DNA from: a virus
Taxonomy: Duplodnaviria; Caudoviricetes
Reading direction: 5' to 3' (one strand)
IMG/VR virus record: IMGVR_UViG_3300029823_000381
Location: 1-55,846 of that record
DNA length: 55,846 bases
The notes under the pieces were generated by a model. It had not been told where the DNA came from. It did not search any database and worked only from the letters and a program-made list of their open reading frames with translations. Every line of letters starts with the position of its first letter. Position 1 is the stretch's first letter. Shown here one piece after another: positions 1-54,153 of this stretch. The position numbers and the translations under genes were made by a program.

Positions 1-1251
1 TTAAATTAATTTTTTATTAAATATATTTGAAAGACCAGTATTTTTAATTCTATTTTGTATTTCTTCTCTGTCTATGGAATATAGACCTTTTTCTTTCATT
101 CTGTTAAAAAATTCTGCACCAGCAAAAGTATACCTATTTTTTCTTCCTTCCTTAGTGTGTATTTTGGAAGTTGCATAGCTTATGATATCTCCAATAGCTG
201 TATTAGTTGGAAGTGTTAGGGTAGGAATATTGAGAGCACATCTTACAGCATTATGACCTGCAAGAGATCCTGTACATATAGCTTCTGTGTGACCTACAAA
301 GAGACCACTTTTTTCTCCACCGCAAAATAAATTGTCTATGCCATTTACTTTTAAGTCTGTAGAAACGGGTGCTATGGAAAGATATCTTATGGAATTCCCT
401 TTCCCTCCAGAATAGGGATCTATAAATTTAACATTTTCTAGTCCTGGTATTTTACGCAGTTTTTCTAAGGGATAATAAGATGTCATTAGCTTTACGTGGC
501 CCGTATCTAGAAGTATTACATTTTGCGCAAATTCCTTTAAAGCATACTGCTGGCATACTTTAGCCTTTAATTTATCCATATTTACATCTTCTTCGGGAAC
601 TTTAAGTACTACTGCGCCTTTTTCCTCAATTTCATGTAAGAGATTTTTGTCTATAGTATCTTTAGCAAGCTTGCAGGAACCACTAAAGGCCCCATAAGTT
701 CCGTCTAATCTCTCTCCGTGAAGATCTTCTACTCCAGCACATTTACTGATACTTATCCTAGGTCCGAAGGAAGGGCATCTAAGTATGCACATGGAACATC
801 CGTTACCGTATTTTATGCAGTTTCCCATAGGACCTGTGGAACCTGTAGTTTCAACAAAGGCATCTGCTTCTTCGTAATCTCCATTTGAGGTGTATATGCC
901 TTTTATTTTAGTTTCTTCCATTTTTACATCTACTACTCTTGATATTAGTTTTAGTTTTATGCCTTTACTTAAAATATATTTTCTAACAGCTGGTTCGATT
1001 TTGTTTACATCATAAAGCCAAGCATGTTTATGACCGGGAAAATCCAAATTTTTGTGTCTGGTAAGACTGTCTGTGATATTTATTAAATCTCCTGCTCCAA
1101 GTGCAGTGATTTCTTCTGCAGCAGTGTATCTGCCGTTATTTCTCATTATACCTCCTACATTTCCTAAGCCAAGTACCATATCGGTTTTTTCATATACGAC
1201 TACATCAGCACCTGCTTTTTTAGCAGACAAAGCTGCCGCACATCCAGACCA
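1..1251 (-). pseudogene. 3' part of host FAD-dependent oxidoreductase (GidA/MnmG-like family), interrupted by the prophage in its N-terminal GxGxxG motif
   Basis: Frame reads WSGCAAALSAKKAGADVVVYEK from 1251, i.e. the second half of a Rossmann GGGWSG motif. Upstream in-frame codons are integrase-end sequence with no start codon and a stop at 1294-1296. Confidence 0.85.
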
Positions 1252-1275
1252 GTTTAAATTACCCCTGTTTTTGAT
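1235..1275. other. Prophage attachment junction; crossover near 1251-1253
   Basis: Host reading frame breaks here; the integrase stop (1254-1256) is 2 nt from the Trp codon at 1249-1251. Confidence 0.7.
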
Positions 1276-2798
1276 ATGGTAATATTTAAAGAATTAGTAT
1301 CATAATCATATACTATTTCTTCTACTATATTTTTTATATAAATTCTTCTTAAGTCATTATCAGAAGTATTAAGTACTTTTTTTATATTATCATATAGTGC
1401 ATCTACATTATTTTTATTTAGGTTGTTTAATAATTTTTCTCTTTGCAATTTCAATAAATTTTCTTTTAATATGTTATTAGCTTGAGTTAGATCTTCAATT
1501 TTTACCATTAATAATTTTGAAGCATCATTTGACATCAAGGCTAATTTGTCAACTAAATTATTAATCGAAGTATCATTTGACTTAATCTTTTTATTTATAA
1601 GTTTAACTTCTTGATCTACACTTTTAGTACTAGTAGATTGACTTAAATAGTCCTTTAAATAATTTTTGTCTAGAAATTTTTCTAAAAACAGTAAGAAGTC
1701 TTCTTCAGCGTAATCAACTCTCAAATGCTTACCAGGGCATCCTATACCATTCCACTTATTTGCACAAATAAAATAATATTTTTGAGAAACTTTTTTCCTT
1801 GGAGCACCTGGTTTTAAAAGCATATGCCCACCACATTTACATTTTATAAGTCCACCAGATAGAAAAGAATAGCTACTTTCGTGTGGATGAGGGGCGACTG
1901 TTTTCTCTTTTAATTTTTCTTGAACCTTTATCCATAAGTCTAAGTCCACGATAGGTTCATGAATTGATATACTAACAAATTTACTTATATCATTCCATGA
2001 CTTCTTGCCATTAGTTTTAGGCCTACGATTATAAGGTAAAAAACCGCAATTATTGGGTTCACCATATACAGTATATCCTTTACTTTCTAGGTATTGAATA
2101 GAATGTTTTGTTGATTTAAGATATGTTGGATTTACTAATATATTTGATATCGTTTTGTTTGGATATTTTTTACCCTTAGCCTTGAAATTTTGACTTATTT
2201 TATACATTGAAAGGCCTAGAGCATATTCTGTAAATATTTCTTTTATATCTTTTGCCTCATCCTCTATAAGTTCTAAATGAGTTATATTTTTACCATTTTC
2301 TTTAACACGTTTTGCTTTATATCCTTTAGGGGGAGTGCCACCACTCCAGTGACCCATTTTGGCAAGTTCTTTCATGTTATCTTTTACTCTTTGCGCTATG
2401 TTCATTCTTTCCATTTCAGCAAAGGACGCTAAAAGCATCATCATCATTTTACCAACTGGGGTAGAAGGGTCAAAACCTTCAGTAATGCTTATTAATTTAA
2501 TGTTTAGTTTGTCTAGTTCGTCATATACGTTCACAAAGTCTACTATATTACGAGCTATACGATCTATTTTGTAAACGGCTATTATATCAAATTGTTTAAT
2601 TTTAGCCAATTCCATCATCCTCTGAAAAGAAGGTCTGTTTATATTACTTCCTGAAAACCCTTCATCTTCAAATATTTCAAACTTACATTCTTCATTTTGT
2701 CGTTTAAAATATTGCTTACATATAGTTATCTGATTCTTTATGCTTTCACCTGTATCTGTTTCTACAGATTTACGACTATATATTGCTATCCTTAACAT
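1254..2798 (-). CDS. Large serine recombinase (integrase)
   Basis: YSRKS catalytic motif, DEGFSG..RP, DRIAR, recombinase domain, C-x-C...C...C zinc ribbon and coiled coil. Confidence 0.95.
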   Translation of the reverse strand: MLRIAIYSRKSVETDTGESIKNQITICKQYFKRQNEECKFEIFEDEGFSGSNINRPSFQRMMELAKIKQFDIIAVYKIDRIARNIVDFVNVYDELDKLNIKLISITEGFDPSTPVGKMMMMLLASFAEMERMNIAQRVKDNMKELAKMGHWSGGTPPKGYKAKRVKENGKNITHLELIEDEAKDIKEIFTEYALGLSMYKISQNFKAKGKKYPNKTISNILVNPTYLKSTKHSIQYLESKGYTVYGEPNNCGFLPYNRRPKTNGKKSWNDISKFVSISIHEPIVDLDLWIKVQEKLKEKTVAPHPHESSYSFLSGGLIKCKCGGHMLLKPGAPRKKVSQKYYFICANKWNGIGCPGKHLRVDYAEEDFLLFLEKFLDKNYLKDYLSQSTSTKSVDQEVKLINKKIKSNDTSINNLVDKLALMSNDASKLLMVKIEDLTQANNILKENLLKLQREKLLNNLNKNNVDALYDNIKKVLNTSDNDLRRIYIKNIVEEIVYDYDTNSLNITISKTGVI

Positions 2799-2933: not shown

Positions 2934-3203
2934 TCATTCCTTTCTTTTATAAAAGCTCTTATACCTATGTGAACAACAGTACCTACATTTAAAGTCACAG
3001 CATTTTATATCATAACAATTTACAAATAAAGCCTTAGTACATACATCTAAATGCATTGCTATTTTAGCCAGTTTTGGTAAATCTACATGTTTAATATTTC
3101 TCTCTATATCATTTAATTGTGTTTTAGAGATTCCGGTAAGAGTAGCAAGTGCTCTTACTGATAATCCCTTTTTTTCTCTATATTTTTTAATTAATAACTG
3201 CAT
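2934..3203 (-). CDS. XRE-family HTH regulator with Cys-rich C-terminal tail
   Basis: IKKYREKKGLSVRALATLTGISKTQLNDIERN HTH; tail CYDIKCCDFKCRYCCSH; ATG at 3203 after a GGGGTG RBS. Confidence 0.8.
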   Translation of the reverse strand: MQLLIKKYREKKGLSVRALATLTGISKTQLNDIERNIKHVDLPKLAKIAMHLDVCTKALFVNCYDIKCCDFKCRYCCSHRYKSFYKRKE

Positions 3204-3325
3204 AATACACCCCAATTTGACATATTTTTTACAATTATTATTTTACTTTAAAACTTTAAATTAAAATAGTGGTAAATGTTTACAAGTATATATACATGGA
3301 AGAATATAGTCGAACGAATTATTTA

Positions 3326-4097: not shown

Positions 4098-4246
4098 ATA
4101 AATGTACTAAGGAGATATACAAAATGATAAAAAAGAGGAATGATACAAGCTGATATTTATTAAGAACTTAACTTACAAAAGGAGGTATACACAAATGATT
4201 ATTTTAAAAGGAGTGAAAATAGAAACATGATAGGAGGGTTGAGATT

Positions 4247-4447
4247 GTGAGAATTTTTTTCAAATGCCCATATTGTGGTAGGAAATTAGCTATCATAGAT
4301 AGTACTAAAAAAATTCAAGGTGTATTTCTTAAGTGTGGGAAATGCAAACGAGAAGTTGAAATAAAAAATATCGAGAGCCAGAATCCAGAGGCCAGAGTTC
4401 AAGAAACCAGAGCCCAGAGATCAGAGCCATTAGCCGATACAGGTTGA
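4247..4447 (+). CDS. Com-like zinc-ribbon protein (first gene of the early operon)
   Basis: CPYCGRKL...IQGVFLKCGKCKREVEI pattern; GGAGGG RBS, GTG start. Confidence 0.75.
   Translation: MRIFFKCPYCGRKLAIIDSTKKIQGVFLKCGKCKREVEIKNIESQNPEARVQETRAQRSEPLADTG
4373..4429 (+). repeat. About 7-nt tandem repeats, consensus CAGAGNC
   Basis: CAGAG at 4386, 4393, 4408, 4415 and 4422; variants at 4379 and 4400. Confidence 0.85.
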
Positions 4448-4476
4448 TTGTATCGAGCCAATGGCTCTTTTATTTT
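4423..4476 (+). terminator. Intrinsic terminator/attenuator inside the early operon
   Basis: AGAGCCATT..CGATACA / TGTATCG..AATGGCTCT stem followed by a T-rich tract. Confidence 0.8.
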
Positions 4477-4498
4477 GCTGGAAAGGAGATACGGTTAT

Positions 4499-4702
4499 AT
4501 GAGTTTTAAAGAACTATGTAGAAAGAATGGATTTACCCTTACTGAAGTAGCACAAAAAGCTAATACTACAGTAGATTATTTATCAAAGCTAAATAGAGGA
4601 AAAAGAAAAAACCCTACTTGGCAGTTTGTAAATAAAGTTGCGTCTATTCTAGGGGTATCAGAAAGTGAAGTTGGAAAAGCGATAACAAAGGAGGATAAGT
4701 AA
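4499..4702 (+). CDS. Cro-like HTH regulator
   Basis: GFTLTEVAQKANTTVDYLSKLNRGKRKNPT; AAGGAG RBS before ATG 4499. Confidence 0.8.
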   Translation: MSFKELCRKNGFTLTEVAQKANTTVDYLSKLNRGKRKNPTWQFVNKVASILGVSESEVGKAITKEDK

Positions 4703-19807: not shown

Positions 19808-20800
19808 ATGAGTAGAACAATAAATTTTTATAATATGGCAATATATAAAAATGATAATAAAACCAATATTGATTTAATTGATTTAATTGACTCGATTGAA
19901 CAAATATCATGGGAAAATAGAGTGAGAAAAATTGATAATGATATTACAGCATCATTTCCTCTAATATTGAGAGATAATTACCCAGAAAAGCGAATAATAC
20001 CTTTTGGTAAGTTTAGAGTGAATTATAAACCATTTATTGGTAGTATAACTACTTCAAAATTACAAGCAATAAAGAATGATGTTGTAGAAATGGTAACAAT
20101 GGTTTATGATAAAAATTATAGATGCGCAGTAATTGATTATAATATGCATGGGCTAAAACAAAAGGGAATTGAATTATATCTTTCTTCATTTTTGTGTAAT
20201 AATGATAGAGAAAATTGGGAAGTTAAACTAACACCAATAAATGTAGAGAAGGGTATTAATGATATTAAAAAATCTAATCAAATAAAATGTTTAGAAATTG
20301 TATTAAAATTAGACAAAAATTCTGAAGAGGTATTTAAAGAAGGAGTAAAAACAGATTATAAATATGTTTTAGATTTGTTTAATAATTTACTTAAAACTTC
20401 AAAAGGTACAGAAGCAAATACTGTAAAAATACAGTTAGGCGTTGGAAATGAAAGAAATAGTACAATGAACTTAGAGACTGTGCAATATGTTTTATCTGTT
20501 TTAAATATTGAAAGCGATAAAATTGACAGTATAAAAGTGAGATATAGAGATGATTCTTCAGAAAAGTTAGATACGATTAATCTGAAATACATAGGTAAGC
20601 AATTACAAGATAAAATTTTAAACGAAAATTCAGATGCCAATCCTTCACCGGAGTTTATAGGAGATTCTATTTTAGAGGCTTATAAAAATTATGATCAATC
20701 TTTAACTCAACAGTATATTAAATTTATTGAAGGAATGGCATCCGAAGAATTACCTAAAATTCAATCAATACCTAAGCCTGAAAATCAAGTTGATAATTAG
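19808..20800 (+). CDS. Soluble accessory protein (DUF6731/DUF4747-like), gene 1 of a two-gene unit
   Basis: AT-rich 330-aa ORF with own promoter; family call by resemblance only. Confidence 0.65.
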   Translation: MSRTINFYNMAIYKNDNKTNIDLIDLIDSIEQISWENRVRKIDNDITASFPLILRDNYPEKRIIPFGKFRVNYKPFIGSITTSKLQAIKNDVVEMVTMVYDKNYRCAVIDYNMHGLKQKGIELYLSSFLCNNDRENWEVKLTPINVEKGINDIKKSNQIKCLEIVLKLDKNSEEVFKEGVKTDYKYVLDLFNNLLKTSKGTEANTVKIQLGVGNERNSTMNLETVQYVLSVLNIESDKIDSIKVRYRDDSSEKLDTINLKYIGKQLQDKILNENSDANPSPEFIGDSILEAYKNYDQSLTQQYIKFIEGMASEELPKIQSIPKPENQVDN

Positions 20801-20814
20801 TTAGGAGAATAGAA

Positions 20815-21483
20815 ATGATAAAAGATTTGATTAATAAAATAAAATGGGGAATAATTATAGAAAAATGGATAATGAAAATACCAATAATATTTGCAGCTCT
20901 TTTATTTTTTATATACCTTTTATCATATAAAATTCTATTTTTTAATAAAAGTTATCTAATACTTAGTAATTTTCTAAACAGGTTATTTGCTAAAGATAGA
21001 ATGTCAACTTTAATAAATATTTCAGTAGTTCTTATAGGATTTTATGTTACTATTATGTCAATATTTGGCTCAAATGTTTCTGCGGCTATTGTTAAATTAT
21101 CAGAGAACGAATTAAGTGAAAATTTTATAAAATATATCAAAAGTGGTTTATTTTTTGCTTTTTCATATTTTTTCTTGACTATATTTTTTGATGTTTTTAA
21201 ATCTAATCTTTTTATTATAATTTATACTACAGTTTTTTTACTTGTCTTAAGTAGTTGTATTAGAATTTGCTTGATTAGTATAAAACTATATCAATATAAT
21301 ATAGAAAATGCATCTGAATTATCTAAAGAAGCAGAAAAAAATCAAGAACAAATTTTAACTTTATTACAAGAAATAAAAGATTCTAATCAAAAAGGTAAGA
21401 AGGAAAAGTATGATAAAATTAAGATGATAACAGAGAAAGAAAAGAGGAATAGAAAAGATTTACCATATAAAGAAAATTTATAA
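20815..21483 (+). CDS. Four-TM membrane protein with charged C-terminal tail, gene 2 of the two-gene unit
   Basis: Four hydrophobic segments; 14 nt after gene 1; followed by a terminator at 21482-21506. Confidence 0.7.
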   Translation: MIKDLINKIKWGIIIEKWIMKIPIIFAALLFFIYLLSYKILFFNKSYLILSNFLNRLFAKDRMSTLINISVVLIGFYVTIMSIFGSNVSAAIVKLSENELSENFIKYIKSGLFFAFSYFFLTIFFDVFKSNLFIIIYTTVFLLVLSSCIRICLISIKLYQYNIENASELSKEAEKNQEQILTLLQEIKDSNQKGKKEKYDKIKMITEKEKRNRKDLPYKENL

Positions 21484-21601
21484 GAGTTTCTAACAGAGCT
21501 CTTTTTAAATTCAATACAAAGCATCTAAGAAAGCCATATATTATAGATTAAATCTGTAGTATGTGGCTTTTTCTATATAAAAAATAGATAGGAGTGAGCA
21601 A

Positions 21602-21895
21602 ATGCCACCAGAAGAGTTCAAAAGAGCAAAGCTTTATTTTGATGGTAAAGAAATAGGAGAAGTAGGAAGTTTAGAAGTTACGGAAGCCATGGCGACAGAA
21701 AATGACGAATATAAGGATTTTGAAAAATTGCTAAATAGTAAAGGCTCTCTAACATTTACAGGAAAAATACTTGGATTTGATAAGGCTATAAGGTTATATA
21801 AGATATTGGAGCATACTAAAAAGAAGCTATTTAATAGGATATTTGGAGAACCGGCAGGACGATTATATTTAATAGGTATAGGAGGAACAAATTAA
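21602..21895 (+). CDS. Hypothetical phage protein
   Basis: RBS; ORF. Confidence 0.6.
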   Translation: MPPEEFKRAKLYFDGKEIGEVGSLEVTEAMATENDEYKDFEKLLNSKGSLTFTGKILGFDKAIRLYKILEHTKKKLFNRIFGEPAGRLYLIGIGGTN

Positions 21896-21896
21896 A

Positions 21897-22124
21897 ATGA
21901 ATGATAAAAGTAAGAAAGACAATGCTAATGATTTTATAGACCAGGTGTGCAATAGTGTATTCAATGATGCAAATTTTAAAATGGCCTTAGTAGCGATACC
22001 ACAAATAGTAGGAATGGTAAAGGCTACATATGATGAAATGAAAAAGCAAGGATTTACTGAGGTACAAGCATATGATTTCGCTAAGTCTATGATGCTAAGT
22101 TCAATTAATGCTGGAGGTAAATAA
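21897..22124 (+). CDS. Hypothetical phage protein
   Basis: RBS; ORF. Confidence 0.65.
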   Translation: MNDKSKKDNANDFIDQVCNSVFNDANFKMALVAIPQIVGMVKATYDEMKKQGFTEVQAYDFAKSMMLSSINAGGK

Positions 22125-22126
22125 AT

Positions 22127-22744
22127 ATGAAATATAGAGATAATTGGAATGGTGAAATAGTTGATATTGTAAAAGTACGTGATTTAATAAAGGAACCTAA
22201 AAAGATAGGGTATTATACAAATGGTGAATTTGATTCTATAGCATTATGTGATGGCTTGCCCAATATTAAAGCCCCAAATAATGCTATATTATATGGTAGC
22301 AATAATAGCATGAAGTATAAAAAAGTAAAATTAAATGAATACATTGCAAGGCATAAGGACAGATATATAATCTTATCTTGTATACCTTATTCATATGAGC
22401 AAATAGAAGATAAAGAAAAAGAAGAAATTACAATTAATCTAAATTTAAATATGGATGAATATATAAAGCTACTAGATGAAGGTAAGAAGAAGGCACAGGA
22501 GTTACAGGGTATAGTTAGTAAGTTGAAAAATGCAAAAGTTGAGGTAAAAGATGAAACTGGCGAAGGCGTTCTCATAGTTATAGATGGCAAATATCTATTA
22601 AACAATGAAGAACCTGAGACAAAAGATAATTCTAATAGAGGTATTAATGTAACTATAAATTGTAATATTGATCTTGAAGCTATTTCTAAGGAAATTGGAG
22701 AATATGTAGTAAGCAAAGTAAAAGAAGCAATGAAGAATATGTAA
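22127..22744 (+). CDS. Hypothetical phage protein
   Basis: RBS; ORF. Confidence 0.6.
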   Translation: MKYRDNWNGEIVDIVKVRDLIKEPKKIGYYTNGEFDSIALCDGLPNIKAPNNAILYGSNNSMKYKKVKLNEYIARHKDRYIILSCIPYSYEQIEDKEKEEITINLNLNMDEYIKLLDEGKKKAQELQGIVSKLKNAKVEVKDETGEGVLIVIDGKYLLNNEEPETKDNSNRGINVTINCNIDLEAISKEIGEYVVSKVKEAMKNM

Positions 22745-22768
22745 AGATAATGCAATTAGGAGTATATT

Positions 22769-23002
22769 ATGGATAATACTAAAATACAAAAGCCATGTAA
22801 ATATTGTAGTTTTGAAACAAAAGAGGATGAAGAATATTCACGAGGAAAATCACTAATAGATGATTGCGATATTGATACTTACCTTGAAAAAGAATCTATC
22901 AAAGGTGTAACAACATATTATTTAGTTTCAAAATCTTATTATGCCGGAGAACCTTCTGAAAAAGTTGATTATTGCCCTAAGTGTGGAAGAAAATTAATTT
23001 AA
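22769..23002 (+). CDS. Zinc-finger hypothetical protein
   Basis: CKYC...YCPKCGRKL. Confidence 0.7.
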   Translation: MDNTKIQKPCKYCSFETKEDEEYSRGKSLIDDCDIDTYLEKESIKGVTTYYLVSKSYYAGEPSEKVDYCPKCGRKLI

Positions 23003-23057
23003 ATAAAGTTTAACCAATATTAATAAAGTAGTATAATATTGCCAAAGGGGTGATATT

Positions 23058-23651
23058 ATGGGATTTAGAATTAAAAAGTCAGTTAAAATAGCACCAGGAG
23101 TAAAATTAAACATTGGAAAGAAAGGTATAAACAGTGTCTCTATAGGAGGACATGGATATACTAAAAATATAAGTAAACATGGAACTAGAACTACTGTAGG
23201 AATACCAGGAACGGGGGTAAGCTATACAAATTATAAGCGAAACAATAATAAACATAAATCTATACCTAAAGAAAGTAAAGTTGAGAGAGCAACCAATAGA
23301 ATTACAGAGTTAGCCGGGAAATATAGAGATTGCCCTATAGATAATAAAGAAGATAAAATAAAGCTGCCTAAAATAATATGGAGAGAAATTATTATAACTG
23401 GATTGCTCATTTTGGCTACTGTAATTTTTATTCCAATGTTTGTATTTGCAATGATATCTACAATAGTGCTATTATTTACTTCACTGTTTAATAAGCAGTG
23501 CTGGGCACAGACGTTTCAATACAAAGCTATAAAGGCATACCATTTTAGAGATAGTAAAAGTTGTATATATTGGTGTGAAAGAAGTCTTAGCAATAAGGAA
23601 TATGAAAGTACTAGAAGATTAATGGAATTAGCACAGCAGGAAATTAATTAG
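23058..23651 (+). CDS. DUF4236-domain membrane protein
   Basis: MGFRIKKSVKIAPGVKLNIGKKG...TVGIPGTGVSY; TM hairpin; own TATAAT -10 and terminator. Confidence 0.85.
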   Translation: MGFRIKKSVKIAPGVKLNIGKKGINSVSIGGHGYTKNISKHGTRTTVGIPGTGVSYTNYKRNNNKHKSIPKESKVERATNRITELAGKYRDCPIDNKEDKIKLPKIIWREIIITGLLILATVIFIPMFVFAMISTIVLLFTSLFNKQCWAQTFQYKAIKAYHFRDSKSCIYWCERSLSNKEYESTRRLMELAQQEIN

Positions 23652-23780
23652 GATCTATTTATATAGGTCTTATTTTTTATTTAGGAAATTTCTAAGACAA
23701 ATAAAAAATTTGAAATTAACCTTTCTATTTTATATACTAAAATTAGGATATGTTGATAATAAATAGGGAGGGAGATTTTA

Positions 23781-24098
23781 TTGGATAATAAATGTCACCA
23801 ACAAATTAATACAAAAACGTCAACTCGTACGAAAGCATACTTTATTGCAAAATATATTTTTTGTGGTGTTTTGTTTGGGGAATACTGGAGCATAGGGTAT
23901 ACAGTTGTAAGAAAAAGTAAAGTGGGATTAGTTTTAGGATTAGTTATGTTACTAATGTTTATTTTTTATAAGGATATTATGATACCTGTTAGGTCAAATA
24001 AAAATGAATTCGGTAAGTATACAAATATCATTTCAGAAATTATTGTTATCGTAGTAGCATTGCTATTTGGCCTTTATATTGAGAGCTTTTTACGATAA
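23781..24098 (+). CDS. Three-TM membrane protein
   Basis: GGGAGG RBS, TTG start, hydrophobic segments. Confidence 0.6.
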   Translation: MDNKCHQQINTKTSTRTKAYFIAKYIFCGVLFGEYWSIGYTVVRKSKVGLVLGLVMLLMFIFYKDIMIPVRSNKNEFGKYTNIISEIIVIVVALLFGLYIESFLR

Positions 24099-24123
24099 TT
24101 TAATATGTGGTGAGGTAGACAAT

Positions 24124-24261
24124 ATGCAAACATTAAAATGCAAGATATGTGGTAGAACACTTATGGAAGTAGAAGGACAGGCACATATAAGAAAGAAGTG
24201 TCCTAAGTGTAAGACCATGAATGAATTCTACATAAAAGAAAAGCCAAAAGTAAATAAATAG
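24124..24261 (+). CDS. Com-like zinc-ribbon protein (45 aa)
   Basis: LKCKICGRTL...IRKKCPKCKTMN, Mu Com-like pattern; GAGGT RBS. Confidence 0.8.
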   Translation: MQTLKCKICGRTLMEVEGQAHIRKKCPKCKTMNEFYIKEKPKVNK

Positions 24262-24264
24262 ATT

Positions 24265-24327
24265 AGCGTACCTATTAAGCGTACCATTATGAGGATAAAA
24301 CCTTGTAGTGGTACGCTTTTTTATTTT
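24265..24327 (+). terminator. AGCGTACC direct repeats plus intrinsic terminator upstream of the packaging genes
   Basis: Repeats at 24265 and 24278; 18-bp stem 24277-24294 / 24301-24318 with three G-U pairs; then TTTTATTTT. Confidence 0.85.
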
Positions 24328-24352
24328 GCTTAAAATGTTGGGAGAGATAAAT

Positions 24353-24583
24353 ATGAGTTATACTCCACATGAACCGCCAGTACCGCTTTCAACTAGAATT
24401 GTTAAAGATGGTGGAAATAAAAGAAAATTAATGACCGCAGGAAAGCTTTGTATGTTTTTATCAGGAGTATTATTTGATAGTGCAGTGAATGATATTATAG
24501 TCCATTCACCACATATAGCATTTATATTATTAGTCATTATTGTAGCTTTAATTGACTTATATTATGGATTAAAACATGAATGA
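24353..24583 (+). CDS. Small membrane protein
   Basis: RBS; two hydrophobic segments. Confidence 0.55.
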   Translation: MSYTPHEPPVPLSTRIVKDGGNKRKLMTAGKLCMFLSGVLFDSAVNDIIVHSPHIAFILLVIIVALIDLYYGLKHE

Positions 24584-24597
24584 TAGGAGGAATCTAT

Positions 24598-24996
24598 ATG
24601 ATAGAGATACATTTAGGTATGCATCCAAAGGATAACAAGATAGTTGTAGACGGTGTTGATATATCTAATAGAGTAACAGCAATTAAAGTAAGTAAGACTG
24701 CACCAGAGTTGCCAACTGTAGAATTAAAACTAATGCCAGATAAAGTTAAGATAACAGGTGATGCAAAGCTTATAAGAGATAAAGGATTAAAGGAATATGA
24801 TACAGAGGAATTGAGAAAAGAATTAGATAAGAGAGATGGAATATTAAATAAGGATGGAGTATTAAGTGAAGATACTAAGAACTTTGTAAATAAGATTTGT
24901 TCTGGCTATAACAAGATTATGAACACATCTTGCGTTGGGTTTGCTGTACCTGCAACAGATGAACCAAATCCAGGCAAACCACCAAGGCAATATTAG
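24598..24996 (+). CDS. Hypothetical phage protein
   Basis: AGGAGG RBS. Confidence 0.6.
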   Translation: MIEIHLGMHPKDNKIVVDGVDISNRVTAIKVSKTAPELPTVELKLMPDKVKITGDAKLIRDKGLKEYDTEELRKELDKRDGILNKDGVLSEDTKNFVNKICSGYNKIMNTSCVGFAVPATDEPNPGKPPRQY

Positions 24997-25092
24997 ATAG
25001 GGTAATATAATATTGCTAGAAAAAGAGATGAAATAGATAAGACATATAAGTCAATATTAAATAATGAGTAGGCAGGTGGTGACAATGTAAGT

Positions 25093-25944
25093 ATGACAGA
25101 CAAAATAAAAAAAGCTGAAAAAGATTACATAAATGGGGCAAAGTATAAAGACATAGCCAGTAAATATAGTGTATCTATAAACACTGTTAAGTCATGGAAA
25201 CAAAGGTACAAATGGTGCAGAAATGGTGTGCATACAACAGAGAAAAAAGCATACACAAAGAAGAAAAAAGAACGCATACAAAAAAGTAATGCACCACCTA
25301 AAAAGGAAGAACCAATACAACAGAAAAATAATGAAGCATTAGAAGAGTATGAACTTACTGAAAGGCAAAGGCTATTTGCTGAAATATATGTAAGAACACC
25401 TATTGCATATAAGGCAGCAATTAAAGCAGGATATTCATCTAATAGTGCATTTGTAGAAAGCTCAAACTTATTAAGAAATCCTAAGGTAAAAGCATATATA
25501 GATTATTTAAAGGAGCTTAAAAGACAAGCTATTAATTTAGAAATAGAGGATTTAGTAGATTTAAATATGAGAATAGCCTTTGGAGATATAAAGGACTATG
25601 TAAGCTTTGGCCAAAGAAGAATACCTATTATGAATAAAGGCGAGCCAGTAGTTATGGAAAACCCTGTAACTGGCAAGAAAGAGGTACTTACAAAGATAAT
25701 AAATACCATACAGCTTAAGGAAGATTATGAGGTTGACGGTGAAATAATATCTGAGATAAAGACAAGTAGACAAGGTACAAGCGTAAAGTTAGAGGATAAG
25801 CAGAAAGCTATACAATGGTTAACTGATTACTTTGGATGGAATCCAGAGAGTAAGCATAAGAAAGAATTTGACAGCAAGAAGATGGAGCTTGAGAAGGAAA
25901 AACTTGAACACCAGAAAGATATAGATGATAAAAAATATTGGTAG
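25093..25944 (+). CDS. Terminase small subunit-like protein (HTH + SPP1/PBSX-type TerS domain)
   Basis: YKDIASKYSVSINTVKSWKQRYKW; LTERQRLFAEIY..AAIKAGYS..LLRNPKV; KLEDKQKA. Confidence 0.8.
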   Translation: MTDKIKKAEKDYINGAKYKDIASKYSVSINTVKSWKQRYKWCRNGVHTTEKKAYTKKKKERIQKSNAPPKKEEPIQQKNNEALEEYELTERQRLFAEIYVRTPIAYKAAIKAGYSSNSAFVESSNLLRNPKVKAYIDYLKELKRQAINLEIEDLVDLNMRIAFGDIKDYVSFGQRRIPIMNKGEPVVMENPVTGKKEVLTKIINTIQLKEDYEVDGEIISEIKTSRQGTSVKLEDKQKAIQWLTDYFGWNPESKHKKEFDSKKMELEKEKLEHQKDIDDKKYW

Positions 25945-25955
25945 GAGGTAAGACT

Positions 25956-26132
25956 ATGACACTGGATGAAGCAATACAACATTGCTATGAAGATGCTAAA
26001 AAAGAAAGTAGTTGCAGTACAGAGGATAAAACTCCATGTGCAAATGAACATTTACAACTCGCATATTGGTTAGAAGAATTAAAGGGGAGAAGAAGTAATG
26101 GCAAGGGATGCAAAGCTAAAAGCCTTTTATAA
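25956..26132 (+). CDS. Small hypothetical phage protein
   Basis: MTLDEAIQHC...CANEHLQLAYWLEELK. Confidence 0.65.
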   Translation: MTLDEAIQHCYEDAKKESSCSTEDKTPCANEHLQLAYWLEELKGRRSNGKGCKAKSLL

Positions 26133-26784
26133 TAGCCAGACATGGATAAACTTTAGACAAGTAATCATAGCAGAACGTGGACTTGTATGTGAGTATTGCC
26201 ATAAACCTATAACCAATGTAACAGATGCAATACTACATCATAAGAAAGAGCTTACTATAGAGAATGTAGATGATGTAATGGTGTCTCTTAATCCAAATAA
26301 CATCACGATAGTACACAGTGGATGTCACAATAAGATGCATCATAGGTGGGGCAATATAATAGAACATAATGTGTACTTAGTATATGGACCACCTCTAAGT
26401 GGCAAGAAGACATATGTTAAGCAAAGGATGCAGCGTGGTGACTTAGTAGTTGATATGGATGAGATATATAAAGCCATATCATTAATGCCAATGTATGATA
26501 AGCCTAATGGACTACTTGGCAATGTGTTCGCTATCCATAACCTACTACTGGATAACATCAAGACAAGGTATGGCAAATGGAATAGCGCATGGATCATAGG
26601 AGGATATGAAGATAAGTATAAGAGAGAACACATCATAAAGGAACTAGGAGCAACACCAATCTTTGTACAGGTTAGTAAAGAAGAATGTAAGAGAAGGCTA
26701 GAAAAAGACTTAATGGGTAGGCAATACAGAAAAGCTGAGTGGTTAGGTTATATTGACAAATGGTTCGATAGATATACAACATAG
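26098..26784 (+). CDS. Packaging-associated HNH endonuclease fused to a P-loop domain
   Basis: FYNS..W, CEYC, HHK, CHNKMH; YGPPLSGK. Confidence 0.85.
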   Translation: MARDAKLKAFYNSQTWINFRQVIIAERGLVCEYCHKPITNVTDAILHHKKELTIENVDDVMVSLNPNNITIVHSGCHNKMHHRWGNIIEHNVYLVYGPPLSGKKTYVKQRMQRGDLVVDMDEIYKAISLMPMYDKPNGLLGNVFAIHNLLLDNIKTRYGKWNSAWIIGGYEDKYKREHIIKELGATPIFVQVSKEECKRRLEKDLMGRQYRKAEWLGYIDKWFDRYTT

Positions 26785-26905
26785 ACAGACACCCCCCATT
26801 TGGAAAAACGGACGCCCTCGCAAAGACCGCACCCACAATCACAATTTCAACGCACGCCCCAAAATTTGAAAATTAGTTCGAATAAATTTGAAAATCTGAA
26901 AACAA
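26785..26905. other. Probable cos/packaging site
   Basis: Abrupt C/GC-rich non-coding patch between HNH and TerS; AAATYTGAAAA repeats at about 26862-26902. Confidence 0.6.
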
Positions 26906-26962
26906 ATTCGTGCATACAAAATAATCTTAGAAAATACTCAAGATATTTGAGAAGGTGAGCAT

Positions 26963-27310
26963 TTGAATAAACAAGAAATATATAATAATGAGTTAAAAAA
27001 GCTAAATGATATATTTGCAGACGTTGAAGAATCAAAGCGCAAATTAGTTGAGGGGTTAATATTAGACGCTGCATTTTTAAAAGCAGAGAATTATACATTA
27101 AAAGAAACTCTTAAAGCCACAGGAATGATTAAAATAAATCCTAAAGATAGAACATTACAAAAGAAAGTTCTTGCTGCAGATCAATATTTAAAGAATGTAA
27201 ATACTTATGCCACTGTAATAAAATCCTTAAATTCCGTATTGTCTAAAAATATTATTGAGGAAGATGATGGGTTTGACGACTGGATAAAAGAGCAAAATGG
27301 AAGTGATTAA
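26963..27310 (+). CDS. Terminase small subunit (P27/HK97-type)
   Basis: Size, position after cos, helical core and acidic C-terminus EEDDGFDDW. Confidence 0.7.
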   Translation: MNKQEIYNNELKKLNDIFADVEESKRKLVEGLILDAAFLKAENYTLKETLKATGMIKINPKDRTLQKKVLAADQYLKNVNTYATVIKSLNSVLSKNIIEEDDGFDDWIKEQNGSD

Positions 27311-27886
27311 ATGAGATTTGAAAGAGTAGCTCAAATTAAAACAGCTAACCAAGTATTACATGAATTACAGAGAGTACCTAAGAAAGCCTTAAAGGTAGTA
27401 AATGATTTTGGCATAAAAATATATTGTTTTGATAAAGACTTTAAACCTTCACGTATTGGACTTTGTAATAAAAATGATATATCAGATGATGGTAGGCTTT
27501 GGGATGATACAGCATGTTATGGACTAAAATATAAAGCTATATTTATACACCAACATGATTTTGAAGAAGAAAAAAACGAAAAAGATTTTTCAGGAATTAT
27601 ACATGAAATTGGACATGCATTAGATCATGCATTAGGAAATAAACTTGGTAAAAATAATTACTTATCACATATAGAATCTAAAATCTATACTGGATGGCAA
27701 AACGATAAGGGTTTAGATTGCTATGCCAATTCAGATTTAGCAGAATATTTTGCTCAAGCATTTATGGCATATTGTTACACCGGATTAGAAAATTATAAGC
27801 CATGGTCATATAGAGAACATACAAAAGAAGAATTGAGAATAAAAGACAATGATATGTTTTGTTTTTTTAAGTCATTGTTGGATTAG
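27311..27886 (+). CDS. Zinc metallopeptidase (anthrax lethal factor / Pro-Pro endopeptidase-like zincin)
   Basis: IHEIGHALDH (HExxH) and downstream YA...AEYFAQAF. Confidence 0.75.
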   Translation: MRFERVAQIKTANQVLHELQRVPKKALKVVNDFGIKIYCFDKDFKPSRIGLCNKNDISDDGRLWDDTACYGLKYKAIFIHQHDFEEEKNEKDFSGIIHEIGHALDHALGNKLGKNNYLSHIESKIYTGWQNDKGLDCYANSDLAEYFAQAFMAYCYTGLENYKPWSYREHTKEELRIKDNDMFCFFKSLLD

Positions 27887-27897
27887 GGCTGATATAA

Positions 27898-29583
27898 ATG
27901 TATAACTTAAATGACTGTACTATAAATAGCAAACATTCCTATCTACTTGAATATTATAGCAAAATAAAATCAGGAGAAATTATTGTAGGCCATGAGCTAA
28001 TACAGCAGTTGAAAAATTTAATTGAAGATCTCGATAACCCAATATATATTTTTGATAATCATAGCGCAGAGTTTAGAATAAGCTTCATTGAAAAGTTTTG
28101 CAAACATACAAAGTCGCCTTTCTTTGGGAAACCTTTTAAATTAGACCTGTGGGAAAAAGCTTTTATTGAAAGCTTTTATTCTTTTAAATGGGCTGAAACA
28201 AAGTTAAGAAGATTTAAAAAAGCTATATTATTAATAGCTAGAAAAAATGGTAAGTCAACACTATGTGCAGCTATTTCATTGGCTGAGTTTTTTTGTGGCA
28301 CTGGTGGAAATGATATAGTATGCTCAAGCAATGATGATGCACAAGCAGGAATAATTTTTGACGAAATTGCAAACATGAGGGAATGGTCAAAAGCACTTGC
28401 TAAAAGAAGCCATAAAAATAATAAGGGAATATTCAATCTTAGAAATAAATCAACTATAAAAAAGATGTCAGAAAAAACGCAAAAAAAAGAAGGCAGAAAT
28501 ATTGACGTTGGTGTAGTAGATGAAGTACATGAAATGAAAGACAATACAGCAGTAAAACCTATTGAACAATCTCAATCTACAAAGGATGAGCCAATATTGT
28601 TTTTGATTACGACAGAAGGGTTTGTGAATAATGGATTTTTGGATGGTGAACTTAAATATGCAAGAAAGGTTTTAGACAAAGAGCTTGAAGATCCAACATT
28701 ATTGATATGGTTGTATACACAAGACAGTGAGGCTGAAATATGGCAAGATAGAGAATCTTGGTATAAATCAAATCCAAGTTTAGGAATTGTGAAGAAATTT
28801 GCATATCTTGAAGATCAAATAAGAAAAGCACAGCAAAGTAAATCTGACAGAGCCTTTACATTAGCCAAGGATTTTAATATTAAGCAAAACAATTCTGAAG
28901 CATGGCTAATGCCTGAGGATTACGAAAACGTAGAGACTTTTGATATATCTGAATTTCAAGGCGGTTTTGCAATAGGAGGATCAGACTTATCAAGGGTAGG
29001 TGACTTATGTAGTGCAAGAGCATTATTAATGAGGAAAGATGATCCTAAAAAGTACTTTTATCAACAATATTTTATTCCAGAGGCTAAATTAAGCTTTCTC
29101 AAAGGCGCTGAATTAGAAAAATATAAAAAATGGATAGATGATGGATTTATAACTATTTCACCTGGGGCAGAAAATGATTTCCGACTTGTTTCAAAATGGT
29201 ATTATGATTTATGGAAAAACTATGGAATAAGATTTTTTAATATAGGCTACGATAGATGGTCAGCAACATACTTTATACAGGATTTAAATGAACTTGGGTT
29301 TGATACAACAAAAGTAAAACAAGATCATGGTACACTATCTGAACCATATAAAATGCTTGAACGTGATTTTAAAGCAAAGTATGTAGTCTATAGTAATAAT
29401 CCTATAGACAAATTTTGTTTAGGTAATGCATCAGTTGATTTAAATAAAAATAGAGAAATATTAATTGTAAAGCCAGAGGGCGAGAAGGATAAAAAGATTG
29501 ATGGTGCCGTAACAATGGGAATTTGTTATAGGGTATATATGGATAACAGACCAATATTCCTTGACCTTGTAAATAATAATTAG
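27898..29583 (+). CDS. terL: Terminase large subunit
   Basis: IARKNGKS, VVDEVH, GSDLS, YDRW, KIDGAV. Confidence 0.95.
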   Translation: MYNLNDCTINSKHSYLLEYYSKIKSGEIIVGHELIQQLKNLIEDLDNPIYIFDNHSAEFRISFIEKFCKHTKSPFFGKPFKLDLWEKAFIESFYSFKWAETKLRRFKKAILLIARKNGKSTLCAAISLAEFFCGTGGNDIVCSSNDDAQAGIIFDEIANMREWSKALAKRSHKNNKGIFNLRNKSTIKKMSEKTQKKEGRNIDVGVVDEVHEMKDNTAVKPIEQSQSTKDEPILFLITTEGFVNNGFLDGELKYARKVLDKELEDPTLLIWLYTQDSEAEIWQDRESWYKSNPSLGIVKKFAYLEDQIRKAQQSKSDRAFTLAKDFNIKQNNSEAWLMPEDYENVETFDISEFQGGFAIGGSDLSRVGDLCSARALLMRKDDPKKYFYQQYFIPEAKLSFLKGAELEKYKKWIDDGFITISPGAENDFRLVSKWYYDLWKNYGIRFFNIGYDRWSATYFIQDLNELGFDTTKVKQDHGTLSEPYKMLERDFKAKYVVYSNNPIDKFCLGNASVDLNKNREILIVKPEGEKDKKIDGAVTMGICYRVYMDNRPIFLDLVNNN

Positions 29584-53094: not shown

Positions 53095-53877
53095 ATGGAA
53101 AAATTATTAATATTATTAGGAGTTTGTATAGGAGCCGTTGCTACACTTTTCTTGTTTAGATATTTAGAGAAGAAAGGCATAAATACAGAGACTATAATAA
53201 AAGATACAGAGACAAGCCTTAAAACAGCAGAAGGATATACAAAGGCAGCAGTAGGCCTTACCACAGGAAAAGCTAAAAAAGGACTTAGCATTATAGCAAC
53301 TATAGAAGGACTTGCAGAAAAGGCTTGCGGATATGCATGGCAATTATATATTAGTCAGCAGATAAAAGATGATGCTGACGGTTCTAAGAGAAGAAAAACT
53401 GCACTTGACTGGATCTATATTGCACTTGAAAAGATAGGCATTACCGTAGATAACAGTGTAAAAACTATAGCAACTGGGATAGTTGAAAATACTGTACTTA
53501 GTGATAAAACTATTGGCCAAATTAATAAGCAATTAGATAAACTTATTGAAGATAGGGTTGCTACTCTGCAGAAAGAAAAAGAAGAGATACAGTCTAAATT
53601 AAATTCTACTACAAATGAACTTACAACTGTAAAAACTCAACTTCTTACAGCACAAAATAAGCTTGCTACAGCCCGAAACATTTTTAGCCCTATACAAAAT
53701 ACAGCTGAAGCAGTTAAAAGTACAACAGATGCAAATACTTCAAATGTAGTGGATACAAATCAACAGGAAGAAAATACTTCTCCTACACAGAGTGAAAGTG
53801 CGAGTTCTACAGTACAAGACACTCAACCAAAAGAAAATAATACCGCAGTTGAAAGCAATACAACCCCTCAAGCATAA
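53095..53877 (+). CDS. Holin-like protein with coiled coil and low-complexity tail
   Basis: N-terminal TM, QLY..G.KR motif; follows the endolysin. Confidence 0.6.
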   Translation: MEKLLILLGVCIGAVATLFLFRYLEKKGINTETIIKDTETSLKTAEGYTKAAVGLTTGKAKKGLSIIATIEGLAEKACGYAWQLYISQQIKDDADGSKRRKTALDWIYIALEKIGITVDNSVKTIATGIVENTVLSDKTIGQINKQLDKLIEDRVATLQKEKEEIQSKLNSTTNELTTVKTQLLTAQNKLATARNIFSPIQNTAEAVKSTTDANTSNVVDTNQQEENTSPTQSESASSTVQDTQPKENNTAVESNTTPQA

Positions 53878-53912
53878 AAAATGCCCTAGGTCAAAAGCCT
53901 AGGGCATTTTTT
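53877..53912. terminator. Bidirectional terminator
   Basis: AAAAATGCCCTAGG / CCTAGGGCATTTTT. Confidence 0.85.
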
Positions 53913-54153
53913 ATTTTCTTATACATAAGGATTTATAAAATTTATCTAGTTTTTCATGTAATTTAAAAAACTTTTCACTGTATTCGGAGTTACTTTCGCA
54001 GGAATTCCAAATTATCAAAATAGAAGTGCTAAGTTTGCTTACAGTATCCTTATAGCCAAGCTTATCGTCAAAAGAAGAATTATGTGAATTTTTCTCTTTA
54101 ATAGTGTCAGTTATAAGTCTAACAAAATTTAGATATAGCTTTTCTTCATTCAT
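53911..54153 (-). CDS. Hypothetical protein (80 aa), last gene of the reverse operon
   Basis: GAAGGAG RBS before ATG 54153. Confidence 0.65.
   Translation of the reverse strand: MNEEKLYLNFVRLITDTIKEKNSHNSSFDDKLGYKDTVSKLSTSILIIWNSCESNSEYSEKFFKLHEKLDKFYKSLCIRK

Follow-up and report, generated by a model that had tools for sequence, protein, structure and literature searches.

A Com-family zinc-ribbon gene with a tandem RNA word and an intrinsic terminator upstream of prophage packaging genes: a candidate antitermination cassette

We analysed IMG/VR record IMGVR_UViG_3300029823_000381, a complete provirus record of 55,846 bp (hereafter the window), and describe in it a module made of a Com-family zinc-ribbon gene of 45 amino acids (aa; gene 2), two copies of the octamer AGCGTACC (R1 and R2) and an intrinsic terminator with R2 at the base of its stem. 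Gene, tandem word and terminator recur together in related phages, with pairing of the stem conserved at the RNA level, with words that take the form of the published RNA target of Com, and, in many relatives, with no space for a promoter between the terminator and the next gene. The reading that we lean towards, from which binding, read-through and timing are predicted, is that the protein would bind the repeats in the nascent transcript and block formation of the terminator stem, allowing read-through into the late genes. The parts of this module (module 2) are as follows.

24124..24261, plus strand: Com-family zinc-ribbon gene 2, 45 aa, with ATG at 24124 and TAG at 24259-24261
24265-24272, plus strand: repeat copy R1, AGCGTACC, 3 nt after the stop codon of gene 2
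24278-24285, plus strand: repeat copy R2, AGCGTACC, the basal 8 nt of the terminator 5′ arm
24277..24318, plus strand: terminator hairpin of 18 pairs (3 G-U, 7 G-C), with a 6-nt loop at 24295-24300
24319..24330, plus strand: T-rich tail TTTTATTTTGCT, the terminator U tract

Gene 2 is preceded by a ribosome-binding site (GTGAGGT, 24110-24116) and encodes a CxxC...CPxC protein. The original prediction, made from the letters of the window, placed a tandem AGCGTACC directly after this gene and took its second copy as the 5′ arm of an 18-bp stem with three G-U pairs; both statements were confirmed, the copies being present at 24265 and 24278 and the stem at 24277-24318, with the reverse complement of AGCGTACC at 24310-24317. 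The window contains four copies of AGCGTACC, compared with 0.18 expected (at least four in 0 of 100 shuffles), and three of the four belong to module 2, within 53 bp. The site reads GCG(N)2CC, a 6-nt gap, GCG(N)2CC. In the minimum-energy fold R1 is unpaired apart from four weak outer pairs. The hairpin has a predicted energy of −30.4 kcal/mol versus −11.9 ± 2.6 for shuffles (z −7.05; 0 of 200 shuffles as stable), and it is the sole terminator-like site in 20000-28000. It has the layout of an intrinsic terminator, namely the 18-pair stem followed by TTTTTTATTTT on the sense strand of gene 2, and its G-U pairs are possible on the plus strand only.

Two further elements of the original prediction stood only in part. 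The tail had been described as shared with a first module (module 1, below), and TTTTATTTTGCT is indeed identical at 4468-4479 and 24319-24330, with a third exact copy at 27958 on the minus strand, but matches at up to one mismatch number 4 versus 3.67 expected (at least four in 52 of 100 shuffles), a chance level at which the tail was rejected as a signal common to both modules. The upstream copy had been proposed to compete for the 3′ arm. R1 could pair with that arm in the window, but this pairing is not conserved, with two mismatches in the relatives L002 and L024 and one in L028 (L- and P-numbers are our labels for loci and proteins found as relatives), and the result would still be a terminator. 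R1 as an alternative 5′ arm was therefore rejected, and the copy is probably better read as a second binding word. Rfam gave no match at gathering score in the window, with chance-level matches only around module 2, and holds no family for the tandem-word terminator element; a match to AS-pc01 in L023 was below threshold. A separate search with the exact 20-nt top of the hairpin returned an RNA-virus fragment (L004:686-705; RdRP_3, 5.8e-47) that shares 21 nt with it, at the point where, just past a TAG stop, the polymerase frame begins. We rejected this match as chance, its fold being no better than shuffles (z −0.46).

The coordinates of the 45-aa protein, originally predicted as Com-like, are unchanged. 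For this protein alone the label is borderline (21.6 bits versus a cutoff of 22.9 for Pfam Zn_ribbon_Com, PF10122), and it holds for the family: PF10122 is matched by 11 of the 14 aligned relatives (E ≤ 0.01, best E 2.9e-12), and the gene 2 protein itself matches PHROG entries named ‘translational regulator’ (1.4e-5) and ‘gpCom’ (2.3e-5). Residues C6, C9, C26 and C29, the predicted zinc ligands, are invariant or nearly so in alignments A2-A4. As judged by database search, the family is small in sequence space, with two close proteins (P0001 and P0002) in a word-index search and 12 representatives at E ≤ 0.001 in an exhaustive search of 1.84 billion representatives. Comparison of the family profile with PDB chains gave generic zinc-finger matches only and no Com structure. 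Among cultured phages, tblastn with the 45-aa protein gave no match at E ≤ 0.01, blastn with 23000-26000 gave matches limited to fragments of the small terminase subunit gene (terS) and of DUF4236, and a relative of the GAG type (below) used as query retrieved four Aeromonas phages only, at 9e-4. No published transcript map was found for any cultured phage matched in these searches.

The tandem word resembles a known protein target. Using systematic evolution of ligands by exponential enrichment (SELEX) with a Com zinc finger, Nowacka et al. (2019) obtained a bipartite target of two GAG(N)2CC words in 868 of 999 sequences, with the motif written NGAGNNCC(N)2-3GAGNNCCNN (PMC6483171). The GCG(N)2CC pair of module 2, read from its sequence, mirrors this GAG(N)2CC pair, although the middle base of the triplet is C in module 2, not A. 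According to the results given in that paper, Com prefers motifs free of duplex and binds a duplex-embedded motif weakly, and the model presented there has Com binding melt an adjacent translation-inhibition hairpin (PMC6483171). As a positive control, 8 of the 9 Mu-type loci that were inspected yielded tandem GAGCGTC / GAACGCC in the 3′ end of com. In the last ~100 nt of the Mu-type com genes (L007-L018, L026) the words read as repeated ERP-like peptides, a natural counterpart of the SELEX motif.

Searches with the family alignments gave a protein-first set of 37 loci, reduced to 36 when L038, whose match lies inside a long unrelated open reading frame (ORF), was dropped. A clear module, defined as a tandem 7-8-mer with copy 2 as the hairpin base and a following T tract, was present in 14 distinct loci (L002, L005, L006, L019, L020, L022, L023, L024, L028, L029, L032, L033, L035 and L037), and L027 and L031 carry a module with an imperfect stem or repeats. 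Four loci (L025, L030, L039, L040) are duplicates of other loci or of the window, two (L034, L036) have too little sequence downstream to judge, and 14 Mu-type loci, on GC-richer contigs, have no terminator within 130 nt after the stop. Together with the motif-first matches described below, the 14 distinct loci of the 36 bear out the proposal that gene, repeat and terminator form a unit recurring in phages.

The module occurs in three settings. It begins a few nt past the stop codon in the window, L002, L024 and L033; in the first three of these the repeats do not code for protein. In L047, L019 and L020 the module and the 3′ end of the ORF overlap, and AGCGTACC-N-AGCGTACC is there translated as SVPSVP, which the L205 repeats also encode; in L005, L006 and L028 the module lies 281-497 nt downstream, behind one extra ORF. 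Because the words are unchanged in all three settings, the constraint is on the nucleic acid and not on the protein. R1 is kept as AGCRYRYC in L002, L005, L006, L019, L020, L024, L028 and L047, the gap between words is 2 nt in most relatives, and the tandem word is conserved across proteins that are 35-70% identical.

The stem was examined in an alignment of 11 modules, from ten Com-linked loci and the Com-less locus L041. In the window, as in each of the 11 modules aligned, the 8 pairs at the base of the stem are made by R2. Over the ten basal pairs, 98.1% of cells are paired, compared with 21-54% in slid registers. Five of these ten pairs have changed on both sides (15 cells), and the covariation score was reached in 0 of 500 column shuffles. 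One basal pair is U-G in 3 of the 11 sequences, and switches from A-U to G-C occur at pairs. These compensatory changes, together with the G-U pairs, argue that the hairpin acts at the RNA level. Among the modules the arms stand 18 to 37 nt apart.

As had been predicted, module 2 lies upstream of the packaging genes, terS being located at 25093. The features between which the module stands are listed below.

23710..23738, plus strand: promoter-like TTGAAA-17-TATACT, ahead of the 105-aa ORF and gene 2 (consensus scan, 10/12 positions)
23781..24098, plus strand: 105-aa ORF, immediately 5′ of Com-like gene 2, with no Pfam or PHROG match
24353..24583, plus strand: 76-aa ORF, first after the terminator, 34 nt past the stem; absent from the relative L033
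24598..24996, plus strand: 132-aa ORF of no known family; its homologue in L033 starts 35 nt after the same terminator
25093..25944, plus strand: small terminase subunit (terS), the first recognisable late gene (Pfam Terminase_2, 1.6e-33)

The promoter-like sequence at 23710..23738 may drive a short transcription unit bounded by the terminator; the region contains 52 such promoter-like sites versus 47.4 ± 5.9 in shuffles, which is no excess. The need for read-through is clearest in the relatives. In 13 of 25 modules the next ORF with a ribosome-binding site follows 22-38 nt past the stem, a span that contains the T tract, the ribosome-binding site, the start codon and nothing more; examples are a prohead protease (L002), a portal (L106) and a 562-aa ORF (L032). 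Such short gaps leave no room for a separate promoter, and those 13 genes therefore depend on transcription through the terminator. Late genes follow the modules throughout. The window, L006 and L029 have terS there, L002, L005 and L063 a prohead protease, and L085 and L106 a portal; in L045, L047, L019, L164, L076, L099 and L137, scaffold and capsid genes come after an SPP1-type portal or a Mu F-like gene.

Eight further modules are followed by leaders of 97-132 nt before scaffold-type genes, with two or three small hairpins in seven of the eight. Hairpin leaders of ~100 nt are located at L047:4165-4250, L019:3165-3245, L020:3146-3240 and L023:3170-3260, and occur also in L164, L076 and L099. 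Their hairpins have a C-G closing pair and an AGAGAA-type hexaloop, then AAAA(C)GCA, and so match the Com-target hairpin form as published in PMC6483171. In L024, positions 3199-3261 match Rfam GP20-b (RF03003; 36.9 bits versus a gathering score of 36.2), directly after the module terminator and before a Phage_scaffold gene, and this RNA may be part of the same circuit. GP20-a and GP20-b (RF02991, RF03003) have been described as candidate structured RNAs that precede phage scaffold (GP20) genes, with no factor or function assigned, and the passages on these RNAs in that description mention neither zinc nor Com (PMC10690425). In a subset of relatives the same genomic place is occupied (GP20-b in L024, hairpin arrays in seven others), whereas the tandem-word terminator lies upstream of these RNAs and is distinct from them. 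The window has neither the leader hairpins nor a GP20-type RNA.

Motif-first scans required a tandem word, a complementary arm and TTTT; the GCR scan was run over IMG/VR. The GCR form was found at 8 loci, with a Com-like gene upstream in 4 (L003, L045, L043, L047) and with 3 of the 8 inside ORFs with poor folds. At the remaining locus, L041:10720-10787 (minus strand), on a high-GC phage contig, AGCGTGCC-TTG-AGCGTGCC is accompanied by a good hairpin and a T tract and lies upstream of a 668-aa ORF. The GAG form was found at no fewer than 119 phage loci, with at least 122 modules. Among the matches listed, the arm is exactly complementary in 69 of 122 GAG modules (chance, ~1 in 16), and 34 of the 122 are Com-linked, that is, a hit to the Com hidden Markov model (HMM) at E ≤ 0.01 ends within 900 nt upstream on the same strand. 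By the same test the broad GCG pattern was Com-linked in 4 of 122 cases, a rough base rate from a scan dominated by high-GC contigs, with mostly random matches and little power. In a control that compared terminators within loci, the arm base is duplicated upstream at up to one mismatch in 5 of 13 Com-associated terminators versus 0 of 17 others from these loci, and at up to two mismatches in 9 of 13 versus 3 of 17; these duplication counts, like the linkage counts, are descriptive, as the sets share ancestry and are not independent trials. In L278 (minus strand, module near oriented position 1332), a contig of 63% GC, four (A)GCGRNCC words lie in and around one terminator hairpin, and the module follows a Com-like ORF with an IEVHC signature by 341 nt.

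In the mechanism that we propose, the cognate site of the 45-aa Com-family zinc finger would be the two AGCGUACC words past its own stop codon. Protein seated on R1 and R2 of the nascent RNA would keep the lowest 8 pairs of the terminator stem open. What is left of the stem above them (9 pairs, in the window including three G-U) would stop 8 nt before the U tract, a distance too great for RNA polymerase to be released, and transcription would run on into the ORFs that follow, into terS and into the morphogenesis genes. Gene 2 precedes its own terminator, so the protein would first accumulate from terminated transcripts and read-through would come later, which would make the arrangement a feed-forward timer. 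Module 1 would act likewise at the start of the early operon, with the AGAG flavour of the motif. Its features are as follows.

4247..4447, plus strand: Com-like gene 1, 66 aa, GTG start
4373..4429, plus strand: array of about eight AGAGNNC heptads within the 3′ end of gene 1
4423..4479, plus strand: module 1 terminator hairpin and T-rich tail
4499..4702, plus strand: Cro/C1-type helix-turn-helix (HTH) gene, first after module 1 (Pfam HTH_31 7.8e-9, HTH_3 3.2e-7)

Module 1 (4247-4479) is placed after the divergent repressor region and before the Cro-like HTH gene. Gene 1 matches PHROG 5602 (6.2e-9), PHROG 6417 ‘translational regulator’ (1.4e-5) and the family HMM (E 0.0023), and a 78% relative of it is named ‘Mu-like prophage protein Com’ in a source. 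Tandem Repeats Finder describes the array with period 7, 7.4 copies and 66% matches. The last heptad (4423-4429) is the base of the terminator 5′ arm, the stop codon of the gene (4445-4447) lies inside the loop of its own terminator hairpin, and the AGAGNNC array is conserved in L048. The repeats of the two modules had been regarded as unrelated, a view that we do not uphold: both follow G-x-G-N-N-Y-C, with about eight AGAGNNC heptads in module 1 and two AGCGTACC octamers in module 2, and by comparison of the words the two repeat ‘codes’ are one-base variants of a single motif type (GAG versus GCG).

Covariation of a protein residue with the repeat, a check suggested with the original prediction, gave a trend with exceptions. 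In alignment A4 all 15 GCR-type proteins have K at the position two residues ahead of the third Cys, where the four of the GAG type, window gene 1 among them, have V, V, L and L; among the GAG-type rows listed from the motif-first scan (n = 35, many near-identical) this residue is I/V/L in 34, Q in 1 and K in none, counts that are confounded by shared descent. Exceptions were found in 2 of the 4 Com-linked GCG motif-first loci (L205, VKIKC; L278, IEVHC), and no single alignment column splits the GCR/GCG class from the GAG class cleanly. A single-residue recognition code (K versus I/V at −2) is weakened by L205 and L278 and is not established. The window genes fall on opposite sides at this residue, with K in gene 2 and L in gene 1, a difference that fits orthogonality of the two. 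Of the idea that the two modules serve as early and late gates, the map positions and the difference at the motif-tracking residue are retained, whereas the covariation of residue with repeat has exceptions.

Several of our results weigh against antitermination by the gene 2 protein. Besides the sub-cutoff Pfam score of this protein, the two exceptions to the residue trend and the shared descent behind the residue counts, a promoter may lie between 24330 and 25093, where one promoter-like match (24474-24501, 10/12) occurs, and a leaky terminator that sets expression ratios would equally explain the short gaps. The L041 module has no Com-like ORF within 11.8 kb of contig. Among the exactly complementary GAG modules listed, only 16 of 69 are Com-linked (26 at E ≤ 10), and 18 of the 53 other GAG modules listed are; on these counts the RNA element can stand apart from the gene, acting in trans or independently of Com. 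Finally, every Com protein treated as characterised in PMC6483171 is a translational activator, not a termination factor.

This last point favours an alternative in which the protein binds the repeats but acts post-transcriptionally like Mu Com, changing the translation of its own or the downstream mRNA, or the stability of either, with termination constitutive or leaky; it might, for example, open the 3′ hairpin of the terminated transcript or help ribosomes onto the next gene. The ~100-nt leaders of the scaffold genes, which hold two or three hairpins of the Com-target form, with GP20-b there in one locus, point the same way. We nevertheless consider it unlikely, given that the hairpin leaves the ribosome-binding site and start of the next gene uncovered in the window and in the 13 short-gap loci, and that R2 is held in a −30 kcal/mol duplex once the RNA is made, a state in which Com, by the measurements reported in PMC6483171, binds its motifs weakly. 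Co-transcriptional capture is the simplest route to R2 and by itself prevents termination. The repeats could instead be DNA sites, with the zinc protein or another factor binding double-stranded DNA and controlling a late promoter that overlaps or follows the terminator. The 8-mer does occur twice direct and once inverted within 53 bp, and some small phage zinc-finger proteins are DNA-binding late activators (P2 Ogr family). This possibility is quite unlikely in our judgement: the 3′ arm keeps its pairing and not its sequence, as seen in the U-G pair in 3 of 11 modules and the A-U to G-C switches, the spacing of the arms is variable (18-37 nt), 13 of 25 loci leave too little space for a promoter ahead of the next gene, and the known ligand of the Com family, as described in PMC6483171, is RNA.

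Two alternatives assign no role to the protein in termination. In ribosome-mediated attenuation, translation of the small ORF up to its stop codon, directly ahead of the hairpin or within it, would decide whether the terminator forms. The position of the stop codon is suggestive of this. In the window it precedes R1 by 3 nt, in module 1 the hairpin loop contains it, and it falls within the 5′ arm or beside it in L047, L019, L020 and many loci of the GAG type, with modules that start 20 or 32 nt ahead of the end of the ORF. Yet L005, L006 and L028, in which an extra ORF separates gene and module, retain both repeats and hairpin, and attenuation would leave unexplained both the Com-type zinc-ribbon identity of the ORF and the Com-target form of the repeat; we regard it as very unlikely. 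The module could also be an ordinary end-of-operon terminator behind an unrelated zinc-ribbon gene, with the 8-mer duplicated by chance or slippage. Small genes and terminators are common at operon ends, the shared tail is at chance level and some modules have no Com gene nearby; set against these are the conservation of the tandem word across proteins of 35-70% identity in coding and non-coding settings, the enrichment of arm-base duplication at Com-associated terminators (5/13 versus 0/17) and the Com-like gene just upstream of 34 of the 122 GAG motif-first modules among the matches listed. This explanation is already disfavoured, and we give it hardly any credence.

In logic, the nearest analogues of the proposed mechanism are RNA-binding antiterminators of the HutP type and the hairpin melting by Com itself. 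As in Mu Com/mom, there is a small four-Cys zinc ribbon with the signature xRCxxCxKxL...CPxCK, a pair of short G-x-G-N-N-C-C RNA words beside a hairpin, and a target, here a predicted one, at or just past the 3′ end of the regulator’s own gene. In Mu, however, the hairpin hides the mom start and translation of a DNA-modification gene is controlled, whereas here the hairpin is an intrinsic terminator with a U tract, the ribosome-binding site (24340-24346) and start (24353) of the next gene lie outside the hairpin, which ends at 24318, and downstream there are two family-less ORFs and then Terminase_2, that is, packaging and capsid genes and no DNA-modification enzyme. HutP of Bacillus subtilis and LicT/SacY and GlpP are RNA-binding antiterminators whose loci run from regulator gene to terminator to regulated genes, and proteins of the HutP type bind short repeated words overlapping the 5′ side of the terminator and stop the stem from forming. 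The predicted binding words of module 2 likewise overlap the terminator 5′ arm, so that binding and stem would exclude each other; unlike the HutP/LicT kind, the protein has an unrelated fold and no evident ligand control, and the circuit would be one of phage timing rather than metabolism. Lambda N and Q modify RNA polymerase so that many downstream terminators are ignored. The window resembles lambda N/nut and Q in having two gates, here candidate ones, per temperate phage, after the early promoter region and before the late genes, but the proposed system would block one particular hairpin by occupying its RNA. Neither the gene 2 protein nor its relatives gave a HutP or CAT/PRD antiterminator match in Pfam or NCBIfam, and the scanned ORFs yielded no Pfam match to N or Q. 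Neither a boxA/boxB site nor a Q-binding DNA element was seen, nut-like sites not having been searched for systematically; as far as family matches can tell, the protein is not a HutP, LicT, N or Q family member. Our literature search, which had subscription journals outside its coverage, returned no paper linking Com-like proteins to terminators or antitermination.

The remaining features of the window place both modules in the prophage. Two HTH repressor-type genes were identified by Pfam scan on the minus strand at the left end, and the early genes on the plus strand begin near 4100. The host is probably a Clostridium, because a contig of a Clostridium sp. metagenome-assembled genome carries an identical copy of Com-like gene 2 and the module (L030).

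1-1230, minus strand: 409-aa ORF, left end (ORF list)
1254-2798, minus strand: serine recombinase, left end of the window
22769-23002: another small protein with two CxxC pairs, 77 aa, no family, just upstream of module 2
23058-23651: DUF4236 protein with a membrane-like C-terminal half, just upstream of module 2
27898: probable large terminase ORF (ORF list)
3′ of 27898, plus strand: long ORFs (ORF list)

A second terminator-like hairpin of 18 pairs, whose arm base is not duplicated, is located near the right end of the prophage (53874-53914). In the relative L002, a tRNA match (RF00005, 34.6 bits) spans 115 nt (2855-2969) and adjoins the Com-like gene upstream; it may carry an insertion.

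What would be new in the proposed mechanism is a known RNA-binding family in a new regulatory role. More broadly, and tentatively, a large branch of Com in phages of Firmicutes and other hosts may consist of self-contained antitermination cassettes that gate packaging and capsid genes, each cassette combining the gene with a tandem G-x-G-N-N-Y-C RNA site and an intrinsic terminator, with specificity that partly tracks a residue near the third cysteine. GAG and GCG specificity classes could then give a phage two orthogonal gates at the positions of lambda N and Q, and the GP20-type leader RNAs could be further targets. If so, a protein of only 45 aa would represent a very small new class of phage late-transcription timing, one that reads a short RNA word and involves no reprogramming of RNA polymerase. 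It would also give a function to widespread ‘hypothetical’ zinc-ribbon genes of phage head modules, supply a candidate factor for orphan structured RNAs upstream of scaffold genes, and provide compact protein/RNA terminator switches, possibly orthogonal ones, for use in the synthetic biology of Gram-positive hosts.

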